A stretch of DNA of 64,000 nt from Nemertoderma westbladi. Taxonomy: Eukaryota > Animalia > Xenacoelomorpha. Under the pieces are notes generated by a model that searched no databases, was not told where the DNA came from, and was given only the letters and a program-made list of their open reading frames with translations. The position numbers and the translations under genes are program-made. Below, piece by piece: positions 12,481 through 53,960 of this stretch; positions within the stretch are counted from its first letter, which is position 1, and each line of letters opens with the position of its first letter. The stretch spans positions 1-64,000 of the forward strand of contig JAUCBJ010005958.1 of assembly GCA_032718475.1 (NCBI GenBank), in the 5' to 3' direction.

Positions 12481-15400
12481 TTACGTTATGGAGTCCCTAG
12501 ATATTTGTTGGATTAGGGAGGTGGTCGTGGGAAGATTATCTTGCCTTCCATAGTTTCCGGACAGTTTTCGGTCTCTTTCCGGTAAACATAAACGACCAGC
12601 TGGGCGATTGAGTGGTTGTGTTACTTTCTCCGCTCCCTTGGCCTGTCTAATCTTCACCGGGGTAAGATGAGGAGGCCATTCATCTTCTTTACTTAGGAAG
12701 TTGGGTCCACCTAACCGGTTTGGAGTATCTGTAAGTTCTTGAGGAGTTGCTCCTCTGGAAGCGATGTCGGCTAAATTGATCGTCTCGGGGCAATGTCTCC
12801 ATTGATCTTCATTGGAGTTGATGTCGTCATTATCTGAGGAGTGTGGTGTTCCCTCAGTTGGGTCGTCTCCCTCACTAGTATCATCTTCCCATTCACTTAC
12901 CTGGCAGACGCGATCTTGAGGTAGTCTTTCTCTGAGCGTTCTACGGGAAGGTCCAGTAAGGTACCAACCTACTCTAGTTCTTCCCGCATAAGCTTGTAGT
13001 GGTTGCGGTTGAGCAGGTCGTTTCTCCAATGTCTCCAGCGCCTCATGTGCGTTTTGACCGATTAATATTTGTACTCCAGGATAATCGGTGTCGAATCTAG
13101 GAATGTTAAGTTGTTGGGCATGATCATCTTCGTCCCAATTATAAGGTTCCACTTGGGTGGTAGCGAAGTTCTTTATTGCCACCATTTTGACTGACCTTAT
13201 ACTGTATTCTCCTAGTTTATCCTGTGGAGTGGACAACTCACCTATATAATAGTCGGCAGCCACAGCAGATTTCCAAACCTGCATGATCCCTGACATGTTT
13301 AGCTTGGTTCGGAACTTGGGTTGTCCAGCAAAGATGTCTTCGGCTAGTTCTTTATCGATGAATGTTCCTGTGCTGCCGGAGTCCAGGAGGGCGTTCACTA
13401 TATAGCTCTTCTGAGGTCCGTGGACCCGTAACTGGACTACAGGAAATTCTCGGATTCCTACATTTGAAGTTGGCGCTTTCCAAGATTGTTGTTGATCTGA
13501 AGTAGTTAGGGTGAGGTCGCTGTCTGTGTCTTTCTCATACATGAGTGCTCGATACACTGCGGTGGCGTTTATTAAGTAACAGGATTCGTTTTGGTCGGAG
13601 AATTCGTCCGTATAGAATCCTTCCATCTCAGATTGATCAGTGTCGTTCACATCACTGAATTGGACATGTAGTTCGGAATCACTCACCTGACTCGGACTAT
13701 TTCGCTCGAATTCAGTGTGCAACAAGATATGATGTTTCGCACCGCACTTTGCACACCTTGCATCGGAGTAACAGGTTCGCCGTTGGTGTCCTCGTCTGAG
13801 GCAATTATAACACAACCGCTTATCCCACATGACTTCCCGTCTCTCTTTTAATGATTTCTTTAAGAATTCATCGCACATATTCAAGCGGTGGGGCCCGTCG
13901 CACAGCACACATTTGGGTTTGATGTTACTTACTTTAACATGTGCTGTGTGGTGCACGTTCGTTCTTTCCTCGGGCTTTCTCACCTGAATTCTCTTGGGAG
14001 ACGTAGGAGGAGTTTTTCTTACCTGTTCTCTCCGGTCATTGGTTCGAGACTTGAATTTACTTACCTGGTCTTTAGGCATTTTATTTACGTAATAAGATCT
14101 TTCAGTGTCTTTCCCGCTATCCTCTCTTTGAGAAGTCTGGTTTTCGCCGTCGTCTGTATAACACACTGGTGTTACCCTTCTCCTAGAAACGGGTTTCTCA
14201 CTCACCTTGTTTTCCAGTGTCTTCTCTCTGGACTGCCTTAGGAGCTGTAATTTCACTTCTCCATCTAAGAATGACATGAGATCAGCCATGGTAGGGTCTC
14301 GTCGTTGTTGTTCCATCATATATAACACTTTCTTATCCCAGCGTGTACCTACTCCACCCTTCGGTAAAGCAGAAGCCACTGCTCTAATAACCATAGCACT
14401 CTGATACTCATGAGACTTACCTAGCCAATCTAATTGTCTGCAGATCTCCTGAATCTCATCGGAAAACTCTATAATTCCGCTGCTAATAAACTTTCGGGGC
14501 GCTACCAACTTTGCATACAAATACCCAGCTATGTTATTCCTATTACCATACCTGATGTTTAGTGTATCCCAAACTTGTCTTAATCCGTCTGGATGTCCAA
14601 TAAACTTTAACGCCATTAACTTGGGAGATCCTTCCAAGCACTCGATGAGGAATCTAAGTTTCTCTCCATTAGATAGTACAGAGTTCTGTATGTTATCTTT
14701 GTAATATTCATTAAAAGGTAACCATTTCATCTCATCTCCATTGAACTTGACGATCTCTCCCACCTTTACCGCTTGCCGGGCTTCGGTTCTAGCCATTTGA
14801 CGCGTAAAATTTTCTTGGGCCATCGTGTTATTTAATATCGAGTTATCGGTATATAAATTTCTTGGATTATGATCCGGTCTATAGGGAATATCATTATCAA
14901 CAGGTCTATAATTACCCTTAATAGGGTTCACTATAGGAGTTTCTACTTCACTAGCAGTATAGATGCGTGTAGGCTCCACACCTTGCGCATGAGATACTTC
15001 AGACCTAACAGGTTGACACATTGTTACAGGGGGTGGTGGTATACCCTTTTGTAAATTTACTAATTTATCGCGTTCTAGCGCGATACTTTGCTGCACTTCT
15101 TGCAACTCTAGCCTACTTTCCCTTACTGTGCCCTTTAACTGTTGAACAGTCCCTTCTAACTCTCGGACCTGTTGAGAGGAGCGTACTCGATTCTCCTCCA
15201 TCTTTGCGAGGAGAATGTCCATCCCCCGCCGTCTCTCGTCCACCCAATCAACCGCCGAAACGGTATCCGCCAACGCTGTAGCGGGCGGACGAGGGACAAC
15301 GGGCGACAAATCATGAATATTTCGCTCGGAGTCCAGGGCATGAACTGTCTCATGGGCTGTTCTGCTGGGCACAGGTAGCTTAGTGCTGTGCAAAGGGAAT

Positions 15401-16557
15401 TGAGAGGTAGGTTCAGGGAGTACAGGTGTCTCTATGACCGAAAGGGTGGCTTCGGGAACAGGCCTAACTATTTCAGGCTCATCTACTATAGTAGGGAGTC
15501 TCTCTATTGTAATTATTTGGTCTGTGGGTTCTGTACTACCTAAGTTGGTGTTATTTAGTTGTCTTCTAACAGCTGGAGGCAAATCAGACAATTTCTGACG
15601 GTGGAATGTTCTTTTACGTCTGCTTAGGTGAGATCTATTTCCTTTGCCTTCAGTGTCGGTGGTATCGCCTTCCTCAGATGATGTATAACCTTGTCTTTTG
15701 GGAGTAGATCGATTCATCATCTGCATATTACTAGCTGTTAACTGTTTATTAAAGTTGTCTTGTCTCTCTTGAAGATTTTCCAACTCTAGTTGGGTTGTCT
15801 CTTCAGATGCCCTCCGTTCTGCTTCTGCCACTGCTATTTTTCTTTCCGCTTCTGCTGCTGCCACTGCCGCTGCTGCTGTCTTTCTATCTTCTATACGTTT
15901 TTTCTTTACTTGTTCTTCTTGAACCTTAGCGATGCGGATACTTTCATCGAATTTAGCTTGGTTCGCAGCTAACATTTCCGCATCGATTGCGTCCAGCACA
16001 AGCTTGGTTCCTTCACTATTAGGGCTAAGCCCCTCCAGCCTTCTCCTCAACTCTTCATCTCCTACAAAGCGTTGATAGTCTGACAGATAGATGTCAATAG
16101 CATCCCTCTTATGCGGTTTCTCTGCTGTCACTTCGCTTTCTTCTTGAGAAGAAGTGGCGTCGGTTGATTCTTCATAGGTTGGCCGCTCATCATAAACCTT
16201 ATCCACCATCTTCGCTCCGCGTTCGGGCGTCCGCTCATCAGTATCCGAACTACTGGAGCTATCGGGCCGCTGAAAACTAGGTTCTTGGCTAGGATGTTGC
16301 TGCTGTTTGACAGCTGCTTCTTGATCCCGCTTGACTTGGGCCCGAGTGCCGATGATAGACCTACGATGTTGGACTAGCCTAGGATCTGACACTACTTCTG
16401 TAGGGATGGCCTTTCTCACAGCAGGAGGTGACTTAGACTTGGATCTAGGATGTTCTATACTTGGATCTGGGTCACTGATCTTTTTAAGACACTGTCTAAC
16501 AGTCATTCTAACACTATCTAGGAGACTATCCGACAGTGTTTGGGTCGTTTCAGACAT
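12481..16557 (-). CDS. BEL/Pao Gag-protease polyprotein with only remnants of RNase H and integrase C-termini (1358 aa)
   Basis: DUF1759-like gag core (KFNGDEMKW..LSNGEKLRFL..LEG..L.IRYGN), three BEL-type zinc knuckles (CVLCDGPHRLNMC, CYNCLRRGHQRRTC, CAKCGAKHHILLH), aspartic protease ALLDSGSTGTFI..ILIG..TRVGWYLTGP, then WRHCPETINLADIASRG..GPNFL..EDEWP and LNRPAGRLCL. No YxDD motif. Confidence 0.9.
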   Translation of the reverse strand: MSETTQTLSDSLLDSVRMTVRQCLKKISDPDPSIEHPRSKSKSPPAVRKAIPTEVVSDPRLVQHRRSIIGTRAQVKRDQEAAVKQQQHPSQEPSFQRPDSSSSSDTDERTPERGAKMVDKVYDERPTYEESTDATSSQEESEVTAEKPHKRDAIDIYLSDYQRFVGDEELRRRLEGLSPNSEGTKLVLDAIDAEMLAANQAKFDESIRIAKVQEEQVKKKRIEDRKTAAAAVAAAEAERKIAVAEAERRASEETTQLELENLQERQDNFNKQLTASNMQMMNRSTPKRQGYTSSEEGDTTDTEGKGNRSHLSRRKRTFHRQKLSDLPPAVRRQLNNTNLGSTEPTDQIITIERLPTIVDEPEIVRPVPEATLSVIETPVLPEPTSQFPLHSTKLPVPSRTAHETVHALDSERNIHDLSPVVPRPPATALADTVSAVDWVDERRRGMDILLAKMEENRVRSSQQVRELEGTVQQLKGTVRESRLELQEVQQSIALERDKLVNLQKGIPPPPVTMCQPVRSEVSHAQGVEPTRIYTASEVETPIVNPIKGNYRPVDNDIPYRPDHNPRNLYTDNSILNNTMAQENFTRQMARTEARQAVKVGEIVKFNGDEMKWLPFNEYYKDNIQNSVLSNGEKLRFLIECLEGSPKLMALKFIGHPDGLRQVWDTLNIRYGNRNNIAGYLYAKLVAPRKFISSGIIEFSDEIQEICRQLDWLGKSHEYQSAMVIRAVASALPKGGVGTRWDKKVLYMMEQQRRDPTMADLMSFLDGEVKLQLLRQSREKTLENKVSEKPVSRRRVTPVCYTDDGENQTSQREDSGKDTERSYYVNKMPKDQVSKFKSRTNDRREQVRKTPPTSPKRIQVRKPEERTNVHHTAHVKVSNIKPKCVLCDGPHRLNMCDEFLKKSLKERREVMWDKRLCYNCLRRGHQRRTCYSDARCAKCGAKHHILLHTEFERNSPSQVSDSELHVQFSDVNDTDQSEMEGFYTDEFSDQNESCYLINATAVYRALMYEKDTDSDLTLTTSDQQQSWKAPTSNVGIREFPVVQLRVHGPQKSYIVNALLDSGSTGTFIDKELAEDIFAGQPKFRTKLNMSGIMQVWKSAVAADYYIGELSTPQDKLGEYSIRSVKMVAIKNFATTQVEPYNWDEDDHAQQLNIPRFDTDYPGVQILIGQNAHEALETLEKRPAQPQPLQAYAGRTRVGWYLTGPSRRTLRERLPQDRVCQVSEWEDDTSEGDDPTEGTPHSSDNDDINSNEDQWRHCPETINLADIASRGATPQELTDTPNRLGGPNFLSKEDEWPPHLTPVKIRQAKGAEKVTQPLNRPAGRLCLPERDRKLSGNYGRQDNLPTTTSLIQQISRDSIT

Positions 16558-17869
16558 GTTTGTTTACACAGTTGAATGCCTACGGCTATAAATACAGTTA
16601 AAGCAAGTCTAGTAAGTCAGTATCACTGTTAGCCCAATAATTAATTACCGATACTGCTACTCAGTGGAGCGTGATATATATATAATATATTAGAATACCG
16701 GTATGCTTATAGTATATATAAGTATTATTACAAACTAGGTTTTCACAGAAACCGGTATATAATTTTAGCACAAATATATATAAATATATAATAGGCCTAT
16801 CGTGGATACCGGTATGCAGTTTACACTTATAGTATATATAAGTATAATTACAGACTAGAATTAATTACAGAATACCGGTATGATTTCAACCTAAAATTTA
16901 TAGAAATAAATATAATAAGCCTATTTTAAATACCGGTATGTCAATTATTTTAAATAATTGAATTTCTGAATTTTAAGGGTTACTTGGTTACTTTAACTTA
17001 CTTTATTACCGTTATTTAAGCAGTAGTCCAACTGATATTGAGACCTAATTGTTATATGGCAGGCCTACTATTTATAAATCGTTTGAGTTGATTTATAATA
17101 TATATATACCCGTTTTAATGGGTTTTGTCAATGTTTGAAATAAATGTTATTATTTCTGGGGAGTAATCACTACACAAAGCGGTGCGCTTTCAGTGAAGTG
17201 TTACTTATAGGACACTAAAACAAATAATTCTAATTTACCTAAGTTACTTAATACTACAAATTACGTACAATTCGGGTGAGATTACAATCTCTAAATAAAC
17301 ACAAAAATTTACAAAAAACACAAAATACGAATTTTCAGGGTAATTTTACAAGAAGTCTACAAACCAGCCTAACAAAGGGTTAGAAATCTGGTTATTACAA
17401 CGGACAGGTTACTACGGTTTTTGAAAATAATAAGTAGTAGTAAATATACTGCGCTGTCCAGATAGGAAAATACCACCGCCTGACGACCTATAGCCGTATC
17501 GCTATAGGTACTACGTTATGTATCACGGAGTGTTCCTACCTAGAAGTTAATAGAGCTAACGTACGTGCCTATCAACCACTTTACAACACAAATATAATGC
17601 CTACACAAATTACTCTCGGAAAGTACTGTACACTAAACCCTAAATTAGGTACAAGTACTTGTACAACAAATAATCAGTAGTTAAAAATACTTGAACAGCC
17701 AAAAGAACCACGGTATCTGCTGGAGTGACCGGTGCACAAAATCACCAGTCTTTACCTACGCCAAGCAGCCCGTATAGTACCGGGGTTAGTTTAACTATAA
17801 CGGTATGTATAACAAACACAATTACTGTAGGAATAAACTTGGGGATATGAATGTTGCGAATAATCGCAT

Positions 17870-21532: not shown

Positions 21533-24283
21533 CTACTAGTATCGGCATGGTGCATTATTCACTCCATGAGGCTGCCAAAGTACAAGATTATGCACTGGCT
21601 GGTCCTCACGGCGAAAGCAATGTCCTGCAAAGCGGAGGCGAGTTTGTTCTAGTGTCAAGCTTGGGGAACCAATGAGACACCTCCAATGTTATATAGTGTC
21701 TGGTTGGAGATGTTTGCATTGTACTTGACACAATGAACCCGGCGTAGCATTCTTGTGAATGTGCCATCCAGAGATTTGGTGTCCTCAGCAGTTAGAGCCC
21801 AGCATGGACTCCCATAGAGGAGTACTGGAACTACTGCTGCTCTAAATAATCGGACCTTAAGTTTCCGATTAATTCTCGGTGACTTCCAACTCCTGGAAAG
21901 CCTATTCAAGGCTGCCCATGCCTTTCCCTTACGTATTCGAAGGTCCTCACCTGACTTCCGGATCCATGATCCCAGGTAACAGAAGTCGTCCACATGCCCA
22001 AGCATACCATCCTGCAAGGTTGACACTGTCGATCACAAAAAACTAATATATATTATGGATAATTGTATTGGGGTTCGTGGGACGGCATTGGACTGGTTCA
22101 CATCTTATCTCCATGGACGAACACAAGGAGTCAGGATTGGGGAGTCTTATTCAAAGCACCAAGATATTAAGTTTGGATTACCCCAAGGATCAGTGCTTGG
22201 TCCACTACTTTTTTCGATATATACTCGTTCACTATCACAGGTAATCAGGAAATACGGTCTTTCTCTCCATTTGTATGCTGACGACACGCAGTTGTATATA
22301 TCATTCAAACCTATAAATTATGTGGATGCTGTAAGTATAACCGAAAATTGTCTCAGAGATGTAAGAATTTGGATGAAGGACCATTTTTTAAAAATGAATA
22401 CAGATAAAACCGAGGTACTATTACTGCAGTCACGATTTGGTGACCAAGTTGCCCCCATCAAAGTTAATATTGGAAATGATTTTATATCTAACAGCGATCA
22501 CGCACGAAATATAGGTTTCATCATGGACTCGCACCTTACCTTTAAAAAACAAATCTCCAATGTTGTACGAGACTCGTTCTACCATCTTCGGAACCTATCT
22601 AAAATCAAGCGATATCTCTGCAAACCCGACTTAGAAATCTTAATACATGCTTTCATTACAAGTAAATTGGATAATAATAATTCTCTTTATTATGGATTGC
22701 CTTCCAAATATATGAAAAAGCTGCAATATGTACAAAACTCTGCCGCGCGACTATTAGAAAGTGTCAAGAAGCGAGAACACATAACTCCCGTTCTAAAACG
22801 ACTTCATTGGCTCCCTATTATTAGACGGGTGGAATTCAAATTGGCAATGTTGTGCTATAAGTGTCTGAATGGCTTGGCACCGCACTATCTCAGCGACTTA
22901 TTGACGCCATACACACCCGGTAGAGAATTACGCTCGAGCGCGGGTAATCTTTTGGTAACCCCTCGGTACTCGCTAGAGAACTATGGCAGGCGCGCATTCT
23001 CCATTGCCGGGCCACGTGTTTGGAATTCACTACCTTATGGCGTGCGATCAGCCACCACATTGACAACTTTTAAATCGAAACTGAAAACTGTTTTATTTCA
23101 ACGCGAGTACCATGATGCGCCTTTTTAACTCATTTTAACTCATTGTATATATGTTTTTATGTCAACATGTTTTTACTGTTTTTTACCGTATTGTTAATTT
23201 TTATTCAAAAGCGCCTTGAAATATGCCTAGAAAGGCGCTATATAAATAAATATATATTATTATTATTATTAAGGATGAGCTTATGCTCATCCGACCAGAG
23301 ACTTGCTGAGACTTTCAAAGTTAACTGTCAAAATTTTGGTCTTTCTGGAGTTAATAAAAAGACCAACACTAGAAGCAGCATGTTCTAATGAGCTGAGGAG
23401 CCGTTGGGCTCCCTCTAGAGATTCTGAGAGTACTCCTAAGTCATCAGCAAACTCTAGATCAGTTAGGTACTTGGCAGGAATTCCTCGACTTCTGGAGCCA
23501 GTAGGTGGAGTTATCATCACCCCATCATCATTATGATGATCTAAGGACATGCGTAGAACATAGTCAACCACAATTATGAACAAGAATGGTGTAAGTGTGT
23601 CTCCCTGGAGGACGCCCCATAACACTTCAAATGGTCTGTGTCACCATCAACAGTAGACACAAATGTTGTCGAACCATCGTATACTGATCTGATTGCTGCA
23701 ATAATTTCATCAGGAATCCCATATAATGAAAGTATGCTGAACATACGTGAGCGGGAGACTGAATCAAAGGCCTTGAAGATGTCAACAAAGATAACTTCAA
23801 GTGTAGACAGGCAACTTCATGTCTTTCTTTTTTGATAACTATTCAATTATCCTTCTAAGTGCCAAAATGGGCTCCATGGTCCCACGACCTTTACGAAACC
23901 CATTCTGATTTCCACGGAGCAGTCTCTCAATGGGATCCCTGATGCGATTTAATCGAATTCTATTGTATAGCTTTGCAGCAATCGAGATCAATGAGATTCC
24001 CAGAAAAGAACAATAGAGTGTTAGGTTGCCCTTCTTGGGAACTGGCACCTTACTTATTTGTTTTCATTTCTTGTGGGACTCTTGTTGTTCGGTACATGTC
24101 TACTATGATGGGATAGATGAGCTCTAAACACTCAGGTATTTTAAAGACCTCAGGGGAACACTATCTACTCCACTGGCACGATTGGTCTTAATGCTCTTTG
24201 CAGCAGCCTTCACTTCTGCAAAGGAGATATCGCCAATGGGAATATCTGGGAGAACAGACTCAGACACTTTTACTTCTATAATA
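21533..24283 (-). mobile_element. RTE-clade LINE fragment (family 1), frameshifted
   Basis: PVPKKGNL, QNGFRKGR, GVLQGDTLTPFLFIIVVDY, DLEFADD, FCYLGS, LLYGSPCW motifs. 11-bp TSD GTCCGTCAATA (21522-21532, 24284-24294). Confidence 0.9.
22014..23271 (+). mobile_element. 5'-truncated L2-type LINE inserted in the RTE; RT C-terminal ORF 22055-23128 is open
   Basis: DTVDH, GLPQGSVLGPLLFSIY, LYADDTQLY, HITPVLKRLHWLP, AGPRVWNSLP motifs. 3' stem-loop AGCGCCTT..AAGGCGCT and (TAT)n tail. Confidence 0.92.
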
Positions 24284-26185: not shown

Positions 26186-27064
26186 TTATTTTATCTTGCA
26201 AGAACTCTTTAGAGTTTCCTTATCACACTTTTTGTCATAGATACCATCATCGGGACATATGTTTCCATCGTCTTTATCGCTTCCAGGAACCTCACAGGCT
26301 GGCTGCAGTAAACCCAAACTATACTGACCATCTTTTGGAGTAGCTTCTGGAGCCTGGAAACAAAACGACGGTTTTCCGGTCTCTTCCAACACGTTAGTCG
26401 GGCCACGAACAGCGCAACTACGCAGATAATCACGAGCTAGCCCTGACTCGACCTTCCTCATCTCCAACCTACAACCCCACGTCACTATGACATAGGGTCG
26501 TTGCCGAGAAACCAATTTCGATGGCGTAATGATGTGTTTCCTAAGACAAGAACGAGCTACTGCCTTCAATTCATCAACCTGTTGTTTTGAAGCGCATGGA
26601 TGGTATAGAAACACAGCAGCCCCATGTTCCAATGAGTGGATCCATCTTTGTGGTGGGCAATATTCATATTCCCCATAGCGTGGCCACAATGGGCGATGGG
26701 GACCGCTCATCGGTAACCCATGGTAACAAATTTCCTCCGATAGACATTTGTGAAGAGGCTCTTTTGTTTCGTTTTCACAAATTATTTCCGAGATGATTTC
26801 CTCATCACTTGATTCCTCGGAACTTTCTTCACTCGAGTCGGAGGCTTCATCACAGCTGTAGGCCTCCTTATTGCAGTACCAGTCAACCTCGATCCCATGA
26901 TTAGCATCATCACAGTCGCTGTCTGAAATACCCATAGAGATACCACCATGCTCCGTGTCTGCAGGATTGATCGCACTACCTGAATTAGCATCAATGGCGA
27001 ACAATGCAGTGTTCATAGAGAGCGCGAATATAGCAGCCAAATAAAGTCTAAAGAGATAGCCCAT
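26186..27064 (-). CDS. intronless DUF3105 / TP53I13-like secreted protein (292 aa from first ATG)
   Basis: Hydrophobic N-terminal signal-like segment, acidic Ser/Glu tract, and PMSGPHRPLWPRYGEYEYCPPQRWIHSLEHGAAVFLYHPCA..CLRKHIITP..VTWGCRL motif. TATA-like GTATATAA about 90 nt upstream. Confidence 0.85.
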   Translation of the reverse strand: MGYLFRLYLAAIFALSMNTALFAIDANSGSAINPADTEHGGISMGISDSDCDDANHGIEVDWYCNKEAYSCDEASDSSEESSEESSDEEIISEIICENETKEPLHKCLSEEICYHGLPMSGPHRPLWPRYGEYEYCPPQRWIHSLEHGAAVFLYHPCASKQQVDELKAVARSCLRKHIITPSKLVSRQRPYVIVTWGCRLEMRKVESGLARDYLRSCAVRGPTNVLEETGKPSFCFQAPEATPKDGQYSLGLLQPACEVPGSDKDDGNICPDDGIYDKKCDKETLKSSCKIK

Positions 27065-27651
27065 TATCAAGTTTGACTATATCATATTATATTAATTCAC
27101 ACAACACAGCTCGTTGTGATTTAACAACTAAATTAAAGTATTAAATTACTGATTATATACCTCTTTGTTTTCAAAAGTACTTTATCATTTATTTATTTGT
27201 TATTATACCTTTTGCCACCCATAGCCAATTACTGGCGAACCCTTTCAGGTTGGCTGTAACTGTTGTAAAATACGGATTTGAAGTAAAATATAGCAATTTA
27301 TGCAAAATCTGGCATTTTTTTGGGACTTAGGGAACATTTATCCTTATCTTAATGTATCTTTAGATTTCATGTGACCCAAATATGTTTGAATGCCCCCAAT
27401 TTTCATGCAGTCCAAGACACAGGTACATAGGGATATTTCACGAAAAAGTTGTTGGGTTTGGGGGTAACAAGATGCCCTGAATCGAGCCGCGGGGTGTTTT
27501 TGTTGAAAATGTGGAAACGGTCGATGGAGGGATGAAGTTATCCAATATGAGCCTAATTTGAAAGCAGGAGCTATTGGCTATGGCAGAAGTGATGTCATAA
27601 AATATGGAAATCTGCCTGTAGGCTATGGAGAGTGATTCAAATACATATTAA

Positions 27652-29141: not shown

Positions 29142-30574
29142 TTAAATGTCAATCTTTCCACACCTGTTTTATAACAATATGAGAGATTCTTGTGCGTCTT
29201 TTGCTATTCATGAAGAGGAACGTTCACAAAATGAAAAGAAGTTTGATCTCACACTTTATTAAACTACAACATTTCCCACTTTATTAAACTACAACATTTC
29301 CAAATTTAATTAAACTACGTTTCAGCTAAATTTTCCGACCTTCAAAGACTAATAATCTGCTTGTTATAAAGTCATCCTTATAATATCAAATCTACCAGAA
29401 AAGGACAAATTTTGGTTTAACTTTCAAGAGTTTTAATTAAATTGTCGAGAATTTTATGTAAAATACAAAACGACATTTTATTAAAAGTTTGGCATTTGGC
29501 AGCATTTTGGTCAAATAAAATTTACGGTGTTCATGAAATAATAATAATAGGTCTATAATATCATAGATATCTTTATCACGAGCATATTGGAGTTTTGCTT
29601 TGATTATCAAAAAAATTCATCATAAATCTGTTCATATTCCCATGATTCACTGCCATTATTTATCATATAGATAAATGATAACAATTCTGAATAGGCCTAC
29701 ATATTTATATATCTGATAAACAATGACAACATCTCGAAGGATACAACCAAATTTGGTCAGTTCTCATGTTGGTTAAGGGCCCCCCTATTGTTGCATTATA
29801 GCCATATTACACGATTCCGCCCTCATCAATAACGTCATGGAGTCAACCATGACTTTATTTTATTTATTTACGTTAAACATTATGGCCATGTATGGCCATT
29901 TCCCATGACTCTAGAACTATCATTCAGACTCAGGAGTCCATAATAATGTGGGGCGAGTCAAAACTGCGAGCCATCAGCAAACTGTTTTAATTATACTTGG
30001 CCATTTTCTGAAAGTCTGTGTTGGGGTGTGTGTGTCAGTGTGTCGGAAGCCATAATATTGTCGGAAGCCAATATCAGAATAGGCCTATATAACTAGCCAT
30101 AGTATAATTATAACTGTTCTCTTAGATGTCTTGCAGCTTTTGCTGCACGAACGCCCCACACGTGTACCGTGTGTACTGCATTGTACTGCACAACATCAGC
30201 TTTTACATGCTTGACAACAACACACTGATCTGTTTCTGATTCTGATCTGATAACATTCTGATCTGTGTGAGGTTGGAAATATAAATCTCGTGCCAAATAG
30301 AAAGAGGAATCACCTTCTCCAATTTACTTTCAGTTAATTTGGCCACTTTTCTATAGAGCCTGGTCCACTGTGACACGGTGCGGCTGTTTTATCAAATGTT
30401 CTAAAACATTAACAACGGCAACCACATTGTTCAACAGTTCCTTCCTTGAACCTTTGCGCATAACCGCATCTTGATTACCATAAACACAACAAGCAAGGTG
30501 CAGTTCACCCAAATGCAAAGTAAAATTTGCGGGTAACCTGCGGTATACACTATACAGTTCTTCTCTCTATATAT

Positions 30575-31021
30575 TTAATCCAAAATTATTGGCCGTCGAT
30601 TCGATCTTAGAATTCAGACCAAAAGGCTTTTTATAGTCAGTAAATACACTTCCTTAAAATCATCACTCACTCGCAGCTACTTCCTTCTCTCATATGGACG
30701 ACTTACTTTTCACTTCCTTTACCGGTGTTATTTTATGATTATGATTACGGCCACAATGATTAATTATACACTTTAACTATAAATTTAGGCGGACAGCTAC
30801 TTCCTTCTCTCATATGGACGACTTATATTTCACTTCCTTTATGATGACCAGGAGTGATAGTGCAGGACCAAGAAAGAGGAAGTGAAATAAGTCATCCATG
30901 CGAGACAAGGAAATAGTGCTAGTAGGAGAGGGTTTTAGGAAGTTTTCTTTACTGACTATAACTATAAGCCTTTTGGGTTGAATTGTAAGAATTTTGAGAC
31001 TGCCAATTATTTTGGATTAAA
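30575..31021. mobile_element. MITE-like foldback element
   Basis: Imperfect long inverted arms (TTAATCCAAAATTATTGGC / GCCAATTATTTTGGATTAA; TATAGTCAGTAAA / TTTACTGACTATA) and an internal ~47-bp direct repeat. Confidence 0.6.
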
Positions 31022-31834
31022 TGTTTTGAATGCTATTTGAAGATAATAATTTATTACTCGGGAAAACGTATAATTTTTTCACTAATCTCGAGGTATTTCA
31101 ATTAGCGAATGCCAGCGAGTTTAATTAAGGGTCGAGATAAATCGAAAAAAATAATGTTCTACGTTTTTTCCCATGTAATACAGTACGTAATTTTATTTGT
31201 AATTTTAATACGTAATTTGTACGTGTTTTAAATACGTACTTTTGTTGCTTTTAAGTCTTTAATAAAAGATAGAACGAAATAGTGTTAGAAAATAAATTGA
31301 ATTGCAGTGTTTTACTAAATTTCTTCCTTAGATACTATAACAGCTTTTGAATGTGTGCATAAAATAATAAATATCGTACAACACAATTTAACAATTTAAA
31401 GTAAATCAAATATCTCGAATGTTCTACATTAATTAACTCAAATAAATAATTATTATTAATCTGCCTAGACTTTATTTTTGCGCACGTTTGTGGACAAAAT
31501 GGGGATATTTTAAAGATAACGTTTATTTATATAGCTATACAGTAACTTAAGGTTATTATTAGAATCACATAGTTTATTACTGTATTTAAATTTGAATGAA
31601 TGATATTATTTATGACTTTATTATGTAATATATAAGTGATAATGTACAGTTTGAGTACTGCAGTAGGCCTAGTGCTGTTTGGTTTTTGCTAATAAACACT
31701 TTAATCTACTCTAAAATTTAACGATATAATATTTTATATATTTGATATTTTGTTGATGAGTTCAGTTTCGTGACCGCGAGTCTCTCTCCTTGGATGGTTT
31801 GTCTGGATCGATCGGTTTGTCTATTCGGTCAGTT

Positions 31835-34800
31835 ATGTCTCAGGGCTCAGGGCAGTCGTCGTCCCAACGGTGCTGTCAGTGTGGGATCCGCGCTTGTACC
31901 ACTTCTAGTCGTTGTCGTTGTGTCCGTGCCGGGCAACCCTGCACCAGCTGCTCGCCTTTGTCTGTTGGCAATTGCCTGAACCCGCATCTCATATCGGGGG
32001 CCTCCATTAGTCCCATAGTGGATGACACTCTGCCGCATGAATCCACTGGCGACAACTCGGATGGGGATAGCTCGGATACTGATTCGTTTTCGAGTGCGAT
32101 AATGCAGATAACTCAGATTCCCCGAGTCGTCGACACCGTTTTTCCTCCGTTATCTTTGCCTGGGAGTGCGAGTTCTCCTCCTTTCCCTACCACTGTGGAG
32201 CTTTTGGAGTCGGCCTTCGGTGGCCAGTGGTTAAACTCTCCTGGCTCTTCCACCGATCCGTATTGGGAGGCCAATTATTCCCGCCTCACCTGCCTTACTT
32301 GTTGCCAGTATATTGTGCCGGGTGGCAATGTGGGACGCAAAATCGCCGACTTAGTCGCTCGCGAGCTGGTATTTCTGACGGACGGTATCCACCCCTCGGA
32401 ACGATCACTCTGTTGCGTGGCTACCATATTCCAGCGAGACCCAGACGTGACAAAAAGTGCGGATATTCGGCGTACTATGCTGCGCCGGATTGGCATGTGG
32501 GAGCGAGAGGAGTATAAGCAGCTGGTGGTGGAGGCGGAGCGCTGCAGCTCCAAGTTCGCTAAGTCCCGGGGATCGGCAAAAGTAAACCCGGGTCGGTTGT
32601 ATAATCGGAAAATACTGGTGGGACAGAATCGGGCGGCAGTTCGTCTCATTACCGAGAGGGACAGTGGTGGAATTTTAGACCCCAATTCCCAGGCAGAGGG
32701 GCGAGCACCTGGGATTACCGTACGTGAGGTTCTGGCGGAAAAACATCCCCCTCAGATGCAGGTTTCGCCGGACGCGTTTGAACCCTGTGACGACCTACCA
32801 GCCTTCGAGGATGTCGACATTACTGGTCAGCACGTCCTCAAGGTTACTCGAGTGCTACGTGGTGGAGCTGGTCCGATCGGCGGAGACGCCGAATTATGGA
32901 GTGCGTTGCTTACCCGCTACGAGGCGCACAGCTCCCGCCTCAGGGAGGCCGTCGCCGGGTTGGCTCGACGCCTCGCCAACTCGGTGGTACCTTGGGGCGA
33001 GATCCGCGCGCTGCGTGCCTGTCGCCTCGTCGCAATTGACAAGGAACCCGGTGTCCGCCCCATCGGCATTGGGGAGGTCCTGTACCGGCTGCTGACTAAC
33101 TGCCTCACAGCCGCCACCAAGATGGATTTCATCGTGGAATGCGGGGCGGATCAACTCTGTGCGGGTGTTAAGGCGGGTGTTGAGGGCGCCGTCCATGCGA
33201 TGGCTTCATTGTATGAGGACGACTCCACCGAGGGGATGCTCCTCGTAGACGCCTCTAATGCCTTTAACAGTTTGAGTCGCCCCGTGGCCCTGTGGAATGC
33301 GCGGGTCTACTGGCACCGGTGTTCCCGTTACCTCTTTAATGCATACAACGGCCACGCCGCTCTCTTCTTACAAGGGTCTGATGTACCGCTCTGGAGCAGG
33401 GAAGGGTACACCCAGGGCGACCCGGCCGCCATGCTTGGGTATGGCTGTGGGACCCTTCCCATGATACGGAGGCTACGGGACATCCGGAGACCTGAGTGTC
33501 CTGGCAACCCGCCGTCGTCCCTACCTGGCATCCCTTCGTCGACCCTGCCTGGTAACCTGCCGTCGACCCTGCACGGCGACTCGCCATCGACCGTACCCTG
33601 CAACTCGCTGTCGACACTATCCGGTAACTCGCCGTTGACCTTACCCGGCAACCCGCAGTCGACCCTACCCGGCAACCCGCCGTCGACGCTACCCGACAAC
33701 CCGCTGTCGACCCTACCCGGCAACCCGCCGTTGACCCTATCCGGCAACCCGCCGTCGACCCTATCTGGTAACCCACCGTTGATCCTACCTGGCAACCCGC
33801 CGTCGACCCTACCCGACATCCCGCCGTCGACCCTACCCGGCAACCCGCTGCTGACCCTACCCGGCAACCCGCCATCGTCCCTGCTTGGCGACCCGCCGTC
33901 TACCTTACCCGATAACCCGCCGTCGACCCTACCCGGCAACCCGCCGTCGACCCTACCCGGCAATCTGCCGTCGACCCTGCCTGGGGACCCACTGTCAACC
34001 CTACCCGGCAACCCACCGTCGTCCCTGCTTGGCGACCCGCCGTCTACCTTACCCGATAACCCGTCATTGACCCTACCTGGCAACCCGCCGTCGACCCTAC
34101 CTGGAAATCCGCCGTCGACCCTGCCTGGTGACCCGCCGTCAACCCTACCCGGCAACCCGCCATCGACCCCGCCTGGCGACCCAACACCGCACCACCAAAG
34201 ACAGTGCTGGTATGCCGATGATGCCTCATCTGCTGGTTCCCTCGCTGGTGTGCTCCGTTGGTGGGAGGAGTTGCTCCTCAGTGGACCCCGAATTGGGTAC
34301 AACCCGGAGCCCACCAAGTCCTACTTGGTGGTGAAACCGGCGTATGTTGAGCAGGCACACGAGATGTTTGGGAGGTCGGGCGTTCGGATCGTCTCCGGTC
34401 ACAGGTTTCTGGGCGGTTATGTTGGTGATTCCCAGGGGCTACGGGGTTTCATCGCGGAGAAAGTTGCGGGGTGGGTCTACAGTATCGGTAGATTGGCGGA
34501 GGTGGCCGAGGATTATCCCCAGACCGCTCATACGGGAATGTCCCGCTGCTTACAAGCGGAGTGGGACTTCCTGCTCCGGGTGGTTGAAATCGACGATGAG
34601 GATTTGGCTCCGATCCGGGAGGCGCTGCAGCACAGTTACATCCCGGCATTGTTCGGGATACCCCTTGGTGCTGTTGACGAAGACTTGGTTCTTTTGCCAG
34701 TCCGACACGGTGGGATCGGGATTCGGGACCCGTTAATGCGACGGTGCCACGCTAGAGAGGCGTCGCTGGCCGGCACAGCTGGGGTGGTTGATGCGCTGCT

Positions 34801-35737
34801 GTCGGACCGCCCCCTCCAGGTCGCAGACCACGCCACGTGTCTCGCGTCGGCCCTCGCTGAAAGCCGCATTACCCAAGAAGCGGCTTACAAGGCGAGACTG
34901 GAGTCCGCCCTCCTCGCTGTTCCTGCCGAACGGCGCCGCACGGTGGAGCGCACGGTCTCCCACAAGACGGGAGGGTGGCTGACCGCTCAGCCTTCGGCGG
35001 TGGACCACACCGACCTGGACCCCGAAGTGTTCCGGGACAACCTTGCCTTGCGGTATGGGTTGACGCCGCCCGGCCTCCCGGCTAAGTGCGAGGGGTGTGG
35101 GGAGTCTTTTTCGACGTCCCACGCCCTTAATTGCAAGTCGGGGGGCTTGATTATCAAGCGGCACAACGAGGTGCGGGAGGTCTTCGGGGACTTAATCGCG
35201 TCCGCGTTCGGGGGCTCGTGCGTCCAGCGTGAGGTTACGCTGGCGTCCGGCTACCTGGACAGACAGGGCCGCGAGGTGGGTGGAGTAAGGGCGGACCTTC
35301 TGGCGAGGGGAGTCTGGGCCGAACAGAGGGTGGCGTCATTTGACATTGCGGTTGTAAACGCTGACGCCCCCTCTTATGTTAACCGGTCCCTAGACTCCGT
35401 TCTCCAGCAGAGGGTCCGCGCCAAGAAGGTACACTATGCCGCAGTGTGCGAGGACCGTCGGATCTCCTTCACCCCCCTAGTCGGAACCACCGACGGGGTG
35501 TGGTGCAAGGAGGCCGATATCCTAATCCGCCACCTCGCGGAGACCCTGGTGGCCCGGCAGCGTGGGATGCGCGAGCGAGGCCTAGCCTGTGTGCTGGGCG
35601 GAGTGCGGAGGCGCCTATTGTTTGCGCTGCTGCGCTCAAACTCCCTGTGCCTGCGTGGCGGTAGGCGGCCATGGAGGGCGCTCGGGTTTGGGGACGGTGC
35701 CGGTCTGCGGGGGTTTGACCTCCAAGACCGGTACTGA
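31835..35737 (+). CDS. CRE-clade non-LTR retrotransposon ORF: Cys-rich N-terminus, RT, CCHC knuckle, restriction-like endonuclease
   Basis: LVAIDKEPGVRPIGIGEVLYRL, GVKAGVEGAVH, VDASNAFN, TQGDP, WYADD, RFLGG; CEGC..H...C then KRHNEVR; RADL..FDI..KK.HY..FTPLV. First ATG at 31835 (the track starts at a TTG at 31790). Confidence 0.92.
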   Translation: MSQGSGQSSSQRCCQCGIRACTTSSRCRCVRAGQPCTSCSPLSVGNCLNPHLISGASISPIVDDTLPHESTGDNSDGDSSDTDSFSSAIMQITQIPRVVDTVFPPLSLPGSASSPPFPTTVELLESAFGGQWLNSPGSSTDPYWEANYSRLTCLTCCQYIVPGGNVGRKIADLVARELVFLTDGIHPSERSLCCVATIFQRDPDVTKSADIRRTMLRRIGMWEREEYKQLVVEAERCSSKFAKSRGSAKVNPGRLYNRKILVGQNRAAVRLITERDSGGILDPNSQAEGRAPGITVREVLAEKHPPQMQVSPDAFEPCDDLPAFEDVDITGQHVLKVTRVLRGGAGPIGGDAELWSALLTRYEAHSSRLREAVAGLARRLANSVVPWGEIRALRACRLVAIDKEPGVRPIGIGEVLYRLLTNCLTAATKMDFIVECGADQLCAGVKAGVEGAVHAMASLYEDDSTEGMLLVDASNAFNSLSRPVALWNARVYWHRCSRYLFNAYNGHAALFLQGSDVPLWSREGYTQGDPAAMLGYGCGTLPMIRRLRDIRRPECPGNPPSSLPGIPSSTLPGNLPSTLHGDSPSTVPCNSLSTLSGNSPLTLPGNPQSTLPGNPPSTLPDNPLSTLPGNPPLTLSGNPPSTLSGNPPLILPGNPPSTLPDIPPSTLPGNPLLTLPGNPPSSLLGDPPSTLPDNPPSTLPGNPPSTLPGNLPSTLPGDPLSTLPGNPPSSLLGDPPSTLPDNPSLTLPGNPPSTLPGNPPSTLPGDPPSTLPGNPPSTPPGDPTPHHQRQCWYADDASSAGSLAGVLRWWEELLLSGPRIGYNPEPTKSYLVVKPAYVEQAHEMFGRSGVRIVSGHRFLGGYVGDSQGLRGFIAEKVAGWVYSIGRLAEVAEDYPQTAHTGMSRCLQAEWDFLLRVVEIDDEDLAPIREALQHSYIPALFGIPLGAVDEDLVLLPVRHGGIGIRDPLMRRCHAREASLAGTAGVVDALLSDRPLQVADHATCLASALAESRITQEAAYKARLESALLAVPAERRRTVERTVSHKTGGWLTAQPSAVDHTDLDPEVFRDNLALRYGLTPPGLPAKCEGCGESFSTSHALNCKSGGLIIKRHNEVREVFGDLIASAFGGSCVQREVTLASGYLDRQGREVGGVRADLLARGVWAEQRVASFDIAVVNADAPSYVNRSLDSVLQQRVRAKKVHYAAVCEDRRISFTPLVGTTDGVWCKEADILIRHLAETLVARQRGMRERGLACVLGGVRRRLLFALLRSNSLCLRGGRRPWRALGFGDGAGLRGFDLQDRY
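33500..34183 (+). repeat. in-frame 24-bp minisatellite, 28.5 units encoding (PGNPPSTL)n
   Basis: Consensus CCCGGCAACCCGCCGTCGACCCTA with no indels across the array. Lies between QGDP and YADD. Confidence 0.97.
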
Positions 35738-37030
35738 ATCCAAGTTTTAGACTTGTGTTTGGTGGAGGGATGTAAAAATTCTTACTAAATTTAATTTTGG
35801 TGGTGGTGGAAATTAAAATTAAAAATTGTATTTGTACAGGATAACTCCAAAATTTAAATTTGAATTACATAATTTGTACTTTTGGTAAATAATTAAATAA
35901 TATTTCGAGGCTTAGAAGCGAAACATTTTCATATATTATATCTTTATTGTGGTTGACTGTGGTTATTAATCTTATTCTGTCTTATGTAAGACAAAGTTAT
36001 TTTATTTCCTACTGTACATAAATAGCAAAATGAACATTGTTACAGTATTACCGTAGTACAGTGCAACACAATCTGAATTACCGGTAGTGCATTAGTAGGC
36101 CTATATTTTCTATCACGAATTATGAGAAACAAATAAATACTGTAGTAATAAATCACTTCCGAATGAGAAGAATTCATCCATTTCAAAGGCTTTTCAGACA
36201 GATGTATAGCTCGAGAAAGGATGCGATGTAGTGATAGCAATCATTAGTGAGTCAGCTTACGTCGACATAGCAACGAAATGCAGCGGATTAATGGAATAAA
36301 TTAAATATATACTGTACGCCTCTACACGATAATATGGACAGCTGTGACATATCTTAACATAGTGTAGCATTCAACAGTTAATCTATTCTAATTCATAGGG
36401 AAGTGAAACCAAGACTTAGGCTGTTTGGTGTGGAAAACATTTTAAACTATCGATTGTTTCATTTAATTGGGTGGTGACAATTCAAAAACATTTGAGGGGA
36501 TTATCGACGGAAATAATTCCACAGTTAATTACTCCCGAAATAAAACTGTTACCTTTCTATTGACTTTCGTTTATTGTTTGGGTTGGAACAACGTGGATTT
36601 GACTTCCTATGTTTTTTTCATTTATAAATAAAATTATGTTAAAAATACTCTTTGTTGAGGCGTGTCAAATCGATAAAAGTAATATTTTGCTATTAATAAC
36701 TTTATTACAGTACTTAATTACATATTACATTATGACCCAAACGAAAACAGTATGTGCCATGGCAAAACTCTGAGGTTACTTGTAAGAGAGAAGATCTTAA
36801 GATAACCTACAAACTTAAAACCGAACAACCAACAACCGAAAACATTAATCGTATTAAACCCCGGGGGGGGGGGGGGGGTAAATATGAACCCCCCCGTGGT
36901 TTATTTGTTATAATTCTAAAACAAACGCAGTTGGGAATCTGAAATTTTTTGACTTTTCCTAAAAATCTATTGTTTAATATGTTATAGTACATTATGATAA
37001 TGCTCTCCATGGCGAAAAATATAGGCTCGA

Positions 37031-37074
37031 ACCCGGTACCTAGGTTTCAAACTTCCGGTTATCATCAGCCGAGT
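37031..37074 (-). ncRNA. minimal type I hammerhead ribozyme motif
   Basis: ACTCGG-CTGATGA-tAACcggaaGTTt-GAAA-CCTAGG-TA-CCGGGT: 6-bp stem I, intact core, palindromic stem III, GUA site. Confidence 0.65.
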
Positions 37075-37248
37075 GTGTGTCCTCTAAGACCACTGAGCTA
37101 CCAGGGCGGTAGAAGATTTATTCGCTATGGAGTGGGCTACGTTGTACTTTCCTATGAGTGATTGAAAAAAGGCCTAAATATGATAGCCCACTCCATAGCG
37201 AATAAATCTTCTACCGCCCTGGTTGCTCAGTTGTCTTAGAGGACTCAC

Positions 37249-37292
37249 ACTCGACTGATGATAACCGGAAGTTTGAAACCTAGGTACCGGGT
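37249..37292 (+). ncRNA. minimal type I hammerhead ribozyme motif (one stem I mismatch)
   Basis: ACTCGA-CTGATGA-TAACCGGAAGTTT-GAAA-CCTAGG-TA-CCGGGT. Confidence 0.6.
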
Positions 37293-38278
37293 TCGAGCCC
37301 CAATAGGGGCGGTTGATATTTTTCGCTATGGAGGAGCATTATCATAATGTACTATAACATATTATATTTAATTCGCCGTCACCCACCCCACAACAATTCA
37401 TTTATAAAAATCTATTGTCTTCCTAGTAGTGAAAACCGTTTTCAAAAATATTGGGTAGATTTCGAATTATCGCACCATTTTTTAACCCTACTTTTGGCAC
37501 TTTTTTGAGGCGTGTTTTGAAAATTATATTTCATTAAATATGATTTGTAACATCTCTATTTTTGATTTACACCGGTTTTTTGGTGTTAGCTATTGTATGG
37601 AATTCATATAAATTAATTTAGAAGTTTAGTTGTTTATAAGAGATTTAGATTTTTGTTCTGAATTCAATGGAATATATAATTATCGAACTAGACATCTTAA
37701 ACTTGTATTTTTCGGAAGTGGGTGCAAAATGTGGTGCTAGCACCAAATTTTGAAAACCATCAAATATATCAATTGATTGTGTCACCTTGTTTTTTGCGTT
37801 ATACGGGTTTGTGAGTGTTCTGAATTGAATGGAATCAGTAAAAATTTCCTAAGAGTTTTCAAACTTGTATTTTTCGCCGGTGGGTGAAAATTGTTGTGCC
37901 AGCACCAAATTTGAATCTGAAAATATGAATTTATAGAATCTTATAAGTGAATTTAAAATTTTGTGTTCTAACTGAAAAGTGCTGGTTACTTGTTTTTTTC
38001 ATTTTTTTCCCACGCAGAGAGGACTAAACAGCTATTTATAGTAATCATATCCTTTTTAAATATTTTCCAATGAATTTTGCGCCCCAGAAAACCTGTATTG
38101 AAAAACAATTAGCCGAAAAATGTAACTTTCAAATTTTGTGAAAATTGTGCACTACTTGTAATTTTTGTGCTGCAATATAACCACCCCAGTACATTTTTTC
38201 GAAAATGTTTTTGGTCGGATCCAGACTAGTGATACCTACGTACAAACAAAAAATCAGACGTTTTTGTAAAAATTTGTT

Positions 38279-50314: not shown

Positions 50315-50920
50315 GTAAGGAATGTTCTACGACATGTTATCTATTTGGTACTACTATAGTATGTGTGTAGCCATGGTACAGCAAATTTATAAAATTTGTA
50401 TGTCTTTTTATTTGGTTTTATTGCATTTTATTATGTTCTAGAACATTGGTGATTGTTCTAGAACCTTAGTAGACATTTTTTCTGACATCTAGTAGTATTT
50501 TTGAAAATAAAAAAAATAATATTTTATTTAGTGTTTTTTTAATATTGGAAAACATTCTAGAATCAATGTTTTCACATTTTTTTATAATTTCAAAAAATAC
50601 TAGCTAGTTAAAAAAAACGGTAAACAACAAGAACAAAGCGAGTCCAACATTACATAGACTACTAATAAACCAAATAGATACCACTGAAGTTGTCTGCTCT
50701 GAACACAGCGAGAAATTCAAACCAAAATTACTACAAAAACTGGTAAACGTTTTCCTTAAGGCTGAGGCTAGTCACATGAAAGAAATTATTGATGAACAGG
50801 AAATGTATAAAACGGGACTGAATGGATTTAAAGCGCCACAGTTATACAAGAAAAAACGGATTCTTTAGTCAGATATTAATCAAAATAACATCCATCCCTT
50901 TCAAAACTGCCTGGCACTGG

Positions 50921-51500
50921 CCTGTCGTCTCTACTACCACTGCCACCCTGGCTGTTGTTTCTACTATCACTCCCACCCTGGTAGTTGTTTCTACTACCAC
51001 TGCCACCATGGCTGTTGACTCTACATCCATTGCCACCCTGGCTGTTGTTTCCACTACCTACCACGTTGCCACCATGGCTGTTGTTTCTACTACCACTGCC
51101 ACGTTGCCACCCTGGATGTCATATCTACTACCACTGCCACCCTGGTAGTTGTTTCTACTACCACTGCCACCCTGGTAGTTGTTTCTACTACCACTGCCAC
51201 CCTGGTAGTTGTTTCTTCTACCACTGCCACCCTGGCTGTTGACTCTACATCCATTGCCACCCTGGCTGTTGTTTCCACTACCTACCACGTTGCCATCATG
51301 GCAGTTGTTTCTACTATCACTGCCACCCTGGTAGTTGTTTCTACTGCCACGTTGCCACCCTGGCTGTCGTTTCCACTACCTACCACGTTGCCACCCTGGC
51401 TAGTTGTTTCTACTACCACTGCCACGTTGCCACCCTGGCTGTCATCTCTACTACCACTGCCACCCTGGCTGATGATTCTACAACCACTGCCACCTGGAGA
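50921..51500. repeat. ~30-bp minisatellite (CTACTACCACTGCCACCCTGGCTGTTGTTT)
   Basis: Many adjacent units with recurrent CCACGTTG insertions. Confidence 0.9.
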
Positions 51501-53064: not shown

Positions 53065-53960
53065 TGTTCTACGCATGTCCTTAGATCATCATAATGATGA
53101 TGGGGTGATGGTAACTCCACCTACTGGCTCCAGAAGTCGAGGAAATCCTGCCAAGTACCTAACTGATTTAGACTTTGCTGATGACTTAACGAGTACTCTC
53201 AGAATCACTAGAGGGAGCCCAACGGCTCCTCAGCTCATTAGAACATGCTGCTTCTAGTGTTGGTCTTTTTATTAACTCCAGAAAGACCAAAATTTTGACA
53301 GTTAACTTTGAAAGTCCTCAGCAAGTCTCTGATCGGATGAGCATAAGCTCAAAGGATGGTATGCTTGAGCATGTGGACGACTTCTGTTACCTGGGATCAT
53401 GGATCCGGAAGTCAGGTGAGGACCTTCGAATACGTAAGGGAAAGGCATGGGCAGCCTTGAATAGGCTTTCCAGGATTTGGAAGTCACCGAGAATTAATCG
53501 GAAACTTACGGTCCGATTATTTAGAGCAGCAGTAGTTCCAGTACTCCTCTATGGGAGTCCATGCTGGGCTCTAACTGCCGAGGACACCAAATCTTTGGAT
53601 GGCACATTCACAAGAATGCTACGCCGGGTTCATTGTGTCAAGTACAATGCACACATCTCCAACCAGACACTGTATAACATTGGAGGTGTCTCATTGCTTC
53701 TCCCAAGCTTGACACTAGAACCAAGTCGCCTCCGCTTTGCAGGACATTGCTTTCGCCGTGAGGACCAGCCAGTGCATAATCGTAGTGCTTCGGCAGCCTC
53801 ATGGAGTGAATAAGCATGGTGGACAGCCCATGACTTTCTTGAGACGCATCTTAAAGGACACTGGCTCTTGAAGATGCGGATGATCTAGCAAATGTCATGG
53901 GTGATAGGGAGTTGTGGCGCCGCAGTTTTGTCGACAAGCCGGCACAGCGTTCTTAAAAAT
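53065..53960 (+). mobile_element. RTE family 1, 5'-truncated copy
   Basis: Near-identical to the reverse complement of 21560-22013 plus 23276-23560. DLDFADD, FCYLGS, RLRFAGHC motifs. Confidence 0.9.

Follow-up and report, generated by a model that had tools for sequence, protein, structure and literature searches.

We found that a non-LTR retrotransposon of Nemertoderma westbladi carries, inside the palm of its reverse transcriptase (RT), a tandem array that encodes 228 amino acid residues. This array is probably a tolerated, disordered surface loop at a permissive site (insertion position 4a), and slippage would have produced it by lengthening a loop that the family had inherited. In non-LTR RTs, the catalytic palm is usually treated as unchangeable. 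The window that we studied is a stretch of 64,000 nucleotides (contig JAUCBJ010005958.1), and all coordinates refer to it.

The element is bounded by a 14-bp target-site duplication, the sequence of which occurs exactly twice in the window, and its GC content (54-64%) differs from that of the flanks (about 33%). Its parts, outside the array, are the following.

31584..31597 (+): target-site duplication, 5' copy, 14 bp; the only direct repeat of at least 10 bp between both ends
31598..35851 (+): full-length element that fits a CRE-type non-LTR retrotransposon, delimited by the duplications, GC content, and contig depth
31760..35737 (+): single ORF, 1325 aa from stop to stop and 1300 aa from the first Met at 31835
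31871..31975 (+): N-terminal Cys-rich motif with 9 Cys in aa 38-72, likely metal-binding and not a classical C2H2 finger
32567..33481 (+): N-terminal half of the RT, with fingers, motif A (DASNAFN, 33248), motif B' (QGDP, 33413), and the following helix, from pLDDT and profiles
34202..34759 (+): C-terminal half of the RT, with motif C (YADD, 34211-34222), motifs D and E, and thumb, from motifs and the model
35087..35134 (+): CCHC zinc knuckle motif, CX2CX7HX3C
35288..35437 (+): restriction-like endonuclease (RLE) core motif, RADL...FDIAV...KKVHY; the whole model matches R2 proteins
35738..35851 (+): 3' UTR ending in three A's only, common to many more contigs than the body
35852..35865 (+): target-site duplication, 3' copy, 14 bp, as a direct repeat

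The N-terminal half of the RT gave profile matches to the LINE-1 and R2 RTs, and Cys clusters like the N-terminal one were also present in the two best homologs, P0002 and P0003. The preliminary description regarded the RT, zinc-knuckle, and endonuclease motifs as intact, and indeed all of them are present, though the protein deviates at 8 of 131 strongly conserved columns (among 110 homologs, the median was 3, the upper quartile 6, and the maximum 16). Pfam found no domain in the ORF at an E value of 0.01 and no match to RVT_1. The motif D(V/I)ExNPGP marks the 2A ribosome-skipping peptide of non-LTR elements; the window protein has no match to it and no NPGP anywhere. In an Rfam scan of 30500-37500, there was no match at the insertion site and no ribozyme, and two weak matches elsewhere were below the gathering score.

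Contigs from two studies (runs X1 and X3) join 31578 to 35852 and represent the empty allele, which lacks five further letters beside the duplication. The filled 5' junction was also found in X1, without differences. Because of the empty allele and the 14-bp target duplication, the insertion is polymorphic and recent. Contig depth in X1 was 135-174 over most of the element body and 17-24 in the flanks, so that the body depth was 7-10 times that of a flank allele, a ratio that is indicative only. The first 145 bp or so had low contig depth and may belong to few copies, and no second copy of the element was found elsewhere in the 64-kb window. Between 35264 and 35850, the depth reached thousands at the 3' end in all four runs (X1-X4), which suggests a non-autonomous derivative, sister families, or a large number of truncated copies; depth so far above that of the body is as expected from 5'-truncated copies and sister families. 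Run X4 holds a 5' piece (31608-32034) without differences in another sequence context.

Other mobile or repetitive sequences were observed in the window. Two related ORFs with similar N-termini lie at 12481-16563 (-) and 671-2104 (-). The longer one has a DUF1759 domain and is presumably the gag of a BEL/Pao-type LTR retrotransposon; the shorter one overlaps tandem repeats of 21, 33, and 54 bp at 702-910. A fragment of another non-LTR RT (21980-23128 (+); RVT_1, E 2e-16) and a C-terminal RT-like piece of another non-LTR RT (53190-53813 (+)) were found, as were an intact-looking DUF3105 ORF nearest to arthropod clusters (26186-27076 (-)) and, in the flank downstream of the element, what looks by eye like an inverted repeat with arms at 37030-37130 and 37190-37300 (about 100 bp), perhaps a MITE. 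A GC-richer tandem array at 50917-51494 has 30-36-bp units with indels and a Thr/Val-rich frame of 202 aa and is unrelated to the array in the RT.

The RT motifs match those of Cre-1_HM by eye (ACRL..LDK.PG.RPIGIGE, DA.NAFN, TQGDP, and Q.W.ADD) in the alignment of PMC5678591, and they do not match the HERO, NeSL, Utopia, or Dong rows of that alignment. The second-best homolog, P0003, adjoins an Atlas cluster named 'SLACS protein' with a score of 0.96. By these comparisons, the element fits the CRE type, the name already given to it in the preliminary description. As far as the group is described in PMC12278014, CRE elements have a single ORF with an RT, a knuckle, and a C-terminal RLE, and they produce a target duplication; the element shares this ORF layout and the duplication with the group (Cre-1_HM type; also CRE1, CRE2, SLACS, CZAR, and Cre-1_BM). 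However, it differs in several details. The six CRE rows in the alignment of PMC5678591 have spacers of about 24-28 aa by eye between the motifs that flank the array, in contrast to 262 aa here. The knuckle spacing given in the same paper for the RLE is CX2-3CX7-8HX4C, whereas the window protein has CX2CX7HX3C, an X3 that its homologs share. Both the CCHC knuckle before the RLE and the zinc-finger-like N-terminal motif of CRE proteins are present, the latter in a Cys-rich form that is not C2H2. There is no poly-A tail beyond the three A's before the duplication; poly-A is general but not universal in the group. CRE1, CRE2, SLACS, and CZAR of trypanosomatids sit in spliced-leader RNA genes, whereas this element is not in a known RNA gene. 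As there was no Rfam match at the site, we did not file the element in those families. Some trypanosomatid CREs have internal repeats.

The array lies in the open frame of the RT, with TQGDP at 33410 upstream and QCWYADD at 34202 downstream, and the spacer from QGDP to YADD is the above 262 residues.

33500..34182 (+): 24-bp tandem array of 28.5 units found by TRF, between RT subdomains 4 and 5 (position 4a); pLDDT below 50 at model residues 313-532
33860..34075 (+): higher-order duplication of units 16-18 and 22-24 at an offset of 144 bp, with 5 differences in 72 bp

TRF reported 77% matches and 0% indels, and also a period of 144 bp. The majority unit translates as PGNPPSTL, and 30% of the 228 residues are Pro. 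The TRF result and the open frame confirm what had been described earlier, namely 28.5 in-frame units without indels or stops. The duplication noticed between units 16-18 and 22-24 was also borne out: an offset of six units gave 21 shared non-majority letters, whereas each of 13 other offsets gave between 0 and 12. In addition, the stretches at 33875 and 34019 are identical over 45 bp. No match of the unit was found in 80 loci or in viral contigs.

Many of the variants had been described as CpG-type transitions. These are present (31 of the 87 differences among units), but the bias is mild, as they are only about 1.5 times as frequent per possible change as other transitions (31/8 versus 40/16). 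The preliminary description also took the divergence among units inside a stop-free ORF as a sign of long persistence. In the coding frame, only one single-step change in the unit would create a stop, so that the stop-free frame is expected by chance with a probability of 0.72 and carries almost no weight. The synonymous rate among units is about 1.8-1.9 times the non-synonymous rate, for transversions, transitions, and CpG transitions alike, in counts that are not independent because the units share ancestry. There is no indel among the 87 differences, and the probability of finding no frameshift is from 0.34 to less than 0.001, depending on the assumed rates. The synonymous excess and the lack of indels are better signs of constraint than the missing stops or the CpG bias.

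An antisense frame over the array (33328-34320 (-)) is open for 330 codons because the unit has few routes to a stop; with only a sub-threshold, low-complexity Pfam match, it was rejected as a gene. Expansion driven by G-quadruplexes had weak support and was not adopted (mean G4Hunter score -0.81; 5% of windows past -1.2 and none past -1.5).

An AlphaFold model built with 120 aligned sequences had a pTM of 0.79, and 737 of its 1056 residues had a pLDDT of at least 90. Its only long stretch of low confidence is the array loop. Residues 11-305 (the N-terminal half of the RT) are mostly above 90, the helix that follows QGDP extends to residue 305, and the strand with YADD does not begin until 545. 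The RT is thus predicted to fold confidently on both sides of a disordered loop, the outcome of a check that had been proposed earlier; the prediction is no proof of activity, as the homologs have short loops. The best Foldseek matches of the model were R2 proteins (E 2e-14, Z 25.9), then LINE-1. The RT structures of R2 and LINE-1 (9NL3, 9DOU, 8GH6, and 8C8J) have the same overall fold (E 2e-14 for R2 and 3e-7 for 8C8J; Z 22-26), but their connections between motifs B' and C are short, unlike that of the window RT. From the order of the secondary structures, and not from coordinates, we infer that the loop leaves the palm sheet at the edge away from the catalytic aspartates; therefore, even a folded RNase H would fit there in another family (see below).

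As for the inter-motif loop, the preliminary description held that it is normally short. This is true in most homologs, but the loop has been lengthened many times in CRE-type RTs, which was missed. After false motif anchors were corrected or set aside, the spacer could be measured in 114 of 120 homologs and was 25-32 aa in 111 of them. It was 25-28 aa in 72 of the 74 shorter matches that were valid (of 120) and also in 56 of the 61 loci that were clean (of 80). Long spacers occur in both of the best homologs (P0002, 113 aa; P0003, 98 aa), in P0074 (59 aa), and in locus L001 (110 aa); spacers in a Vitrella family and L001 range from 59 to 115 aa. All the long spacers of P0002, P0003, the Vitrella family, and L001 end in RQCWYADD. 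In a tree made without the loop, the five long-spacer sequences, including the window protein, formed one branch with an SH-aLRT of 90, and a branch of seven rows had a support of 94 in a second tree; neither value is strong. The first was a quick tree in which 3 of 49 rows were left out, the second held 68 rows after 21 of 89 were left out for failing the motif patterns, and both hold unnamed homologs only. P0253, which also has a long spacer, grouped with short-spacer rows.

The long loops differ in sequence and length, and their flanks are 48-92% identical. They are 35-238 aa long, with a net charge of -1 to -22 and 3-30% Pro; 69-81% of their residues are S, T, P, G, A, E, or D, and little sequence is shared across families. 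The loop of L001 contains its own degenerate 21-bp repeat.

In a wider search, both anchors were found in 343 of 401 proteins. The spacer was within 3 aa of the mode in 300 of them and had at least 24 extra residues in 24, a number that includes near-duplicates and the window protein; the share of long loops is inflated because proteins with such loops were the source of the profile used for searching (A2). On the 68-row tree, spacers of at least 50 aa need six changes, five of which are forced by strongly supported branches. With P0007 as the reference for 289 proteins, inserts of at least 20 aa in the RT core occurred at two loops only, namely before motif A (20-84 aa in about 21 of the 289 proteins) and between QGDP and YADD (15 proteins, the longest insert being 363 aa). 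The same two peaks, together with scattered single cases, were obtained with two other references. The alignments thus place the QGDP-YADD loop as one of two putatively permissive RT loops, the one that takes the longest inserts. Because this loop has been lengthened many times in CRE-type RTs, the array would be an extreme case of a recurrent feature. Inserts in the loop before motif A were seen in P0270, P0294, P0093, P0371, P0114, P0097, and others, and a separate lineage (loci L008, L015, L018, and L030; proteins P0148 and P0153) has a fixed spacer of 43 aa at the array site.

In the list of RT insertions in PMC5678591, insertion 4a is given for group II intron RTs and Prp8, and LINEs are listed with 0, 2a, 3a, and 6a but not 4a. 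The array shares with the former its position between RT subdomains 4 and 5, and the likeness is positional. The long 4a inserts of CRE elements arose several times separately.

Other copies of the family were read only through short DNA contigs of the four runs; these contigs show presence and not absence, rare variants are dropped from them, and their depth cannot be read as a copy number; X1, moreover, may be the run from which the window itself was assembled. The passage from the RT into unit 7 of the array is present, with 4-5 differences from the window, in contigs of three runs from two studies; the depth of this 5' junction relative to the upstream sequence was 0.69 in X1, 0.47 in X2, and 0.46 in X3. 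An X1 contig that covers the last three units and YADD and differs from the window at one position had a depth of 173.8, compared with 173.5 for the RT upstream of the array. Because this depth equals that of the RT body, the array looks family-wide, at least in X1. For X2 and X3, where array-less copies may exist, no same-family contig was listed over the 3' junction or YADD (34115-34300), and X4 had no contig cover over most of the element; such holes prove nothing. Among the listed contigs, which cannot show absence, there was no same-family joint that skips the array. A joint of 33357 to 34195 in X2 and X3 was read not as an array-less copy but as a sister family, since the identity beside it is about 86%. 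The comparison of other copies suggested earlier therefore showed same-family contigs that run from the RT into the array (X1-X3) and from the array into YADD (X1). Two options had been left open, and this result supports the tolerated disordered loop carried by an active family. It does not support a local expansion in this copy, because same-family contigs enter the array in X1-X3 and leave it into YADD at body depth in X1.

Sister CRE families in the same runs have 80-87% nucleotide identity to the element and similar or higher depth. Their contigs leave the alignment just after the helix of motif B' and re-enter it immediately ahead of QCWY. Between these points, 97-296 letters are unaligned, and none of these contigs showed the two sides linked by a short spacer. 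In five contigs, the spacers have lower bounds of 44-113 aa, if each contig stays in one element. Sister families in the same host thus appear to have long spacers of their own.

If the array is a tolerated loop, the ancestor of the small subclade would already have carried a low-complexity loop of about 60-110 aa at this site. A 24-bp word inside the loop may then have been multiplied by slippage or unequal exchange, in single units first and as a six-unit block later. Selection would act on the reading frame and, to a slight degree, on the encoded residues. In the palm, the loop would lead into the YADD strand at the sheet edge that lies away from the catalytic aspartates, and the array itself probably has no specific job and is neutral. 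It is unlikely, in comparison, that the loop is a functional Pro/Ser/Thr-rich disordered module kept by selection for PxxP host binding, phosphorylation, or RNP condensation. The persistence of long loops across a subclade with a flank identity of 48-69%, and apparently in several host sister families, would agree with such a function, as would the synonymous excess among the units and the presence of a folded enzyme at the same site in another family. However, the long loops share no sequence, charge, or length, residue-changing C>T in the CCG and TCG codons of the array (11) is about as frequent as silent G>A (9), and five of the nine listed between-copy variants in and beside the array change a residue. 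A slightly smaller chance goes to an enzyme crippled by the array; the family would then be a passenger of the sister CRE families, with its frame open only through youth. A passenger family is possible because helpers are present: the sister families are abundant in the same runs and could act in trans. Three quarters of the homologs deviate at fewer conserved columns than the window protein does, and its end branch is longer than that of P0002 (0.54 versus 0.32). On the other hand, the 87 unit differences contain no indel and 1300 codons are open, and, among the 17 between-copy differences listed (in 40 of 286 rows), the RT and thumb have 5 silent and 3 changing ones, compared with 2 and 7 in the N-terminal part. 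Furthermore, non-LTR proteins prefer their own RNA.

We also considered whether the array lies in a spliceosomal intron (GT at 33496 and AG at 34200), the splicing of which would give an RT with a spacer of 27 aa.

33496..34200 (+): candidate GT...AG interval of 705 nt, the loss of which would leave the modal 27-aa spacer; probably due to chance

Removal of the interval would keep the frame and give the modal spacer length exactly, but, in 20000 shuffles, a pair that would leave 25-29 aa appeared in 40% and one that would leave precisely 27 aa in 11%. The donor and acceptor are weak by eye, L001 has no such pair, and the interval itself is stop-free and in frame. Moreover, spliced RNA should give array-less DNA copies, whereas the X1 contig at the acceptor is unbranched at body depth, so an intron seems very improbable. 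Hardly any credence is left for an array that is restricted to this copy or results from misassembly. None of the contigs listed covers the array from end to end, which would allow an artefact, but contigs of three runs cross from the RT into unit 7, both junctions in X1 are far above the flank depth, and the units are too diverged for collapse or stutter. We therefore return to the tolerated loop at position 4a.

At the same position, a family outside the window appears to hold a folded enzyme. P0324 has 259 extra residues in the QGDP-YADD loop, including a match to Pfam PF13456 above the cut-off. The insert is common to four clusters, that of P0324 and, at 59-67% identity, those of P0414, P0415, and P0416 (24 member sequences altogether). 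The insert-bearing proteins (P0324, P0391, and P0414-P0434) belong to CRE-like RLE elements, with the insert between QGDP and FADD, and the family is on a long branch. All four RNase H motif patterns (D-E-D-R-D) were found in 15 of the 21 proteins examined, the other six being fragments, and the spacers are 285-390 aa in the 14 proteins that reach motif C. The insert matches archaeal-type RNase HI in sequence (PDB sequence matches, E 1e-9 to 2e-7). In the model of P0418, which starts at motif A, an RNase H fold occupies residues 125-268 with a disordered linker on each side, and the RT strands resume after it; the TM score of this fold to the solved structures of Rv2228c and of the Halobacterium and Sulfolobus RNases H is 0.82-0.92. 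An archaeal-type RNase H is thus predicted to be nested inside the RT of this family, at the position of the window array.

In the passages of PMC4640811 on the subject, an RNase H upstream of the RT is called unique, and CRE is not among the carrier clades listed. According to the relevant text of PMC5348765, archaeal-type RNase H occurs in Repbase only in plant and oomycete elements, and a location downstream of the RT is also mentioned in PMC5678591. Like the P0324 family, several known non-LTR elements have an RNase H (Utopia of oomycetes, L1 of plants and oomycetes, the I group, Proto1, and Dualen); however, theirs is upstream or downstream of the RT, whereas that of the P0324 family is nested in it. 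Neither a nested RNase H nor long 4a inserts in CRE were found in the literature searched, the scope of which did not extend to Repbase, most subscription papers, and figures. The chances seem about even that position 4a of CRE-type RTs is a natural socket for whole domains, which acquired disordered arms (50-260 aa) on five or more occasions and, in one family, an archaeal-type RNase H nested in the palm.

A recently mobile family thus carries 235 extra residues between two catalytic motifs of the RT palm. Pfam-style detection of RTs fails on such enzymes, as the lack of an RVT_1 match for the window protein illustrates. The interest lies in the exposed site and the nested RNase H family rather than in the array. 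The relatives show that the site can be expanded repeatedly, up to a folded nuclease, and so provide a map of tolerated additions, and, for the open question of why certain non-LTR elements have an RNase H of their own, they offer a case that can be tested. If the socket is real and the enzymes stay active, the 4a loop would be a ready internal fusion site for R2-like gene-insertion proteins, and degradation of the template RNA by the nested RNase H would proceed from a location different from that of the RNase H in retroviral or LINE RTs.
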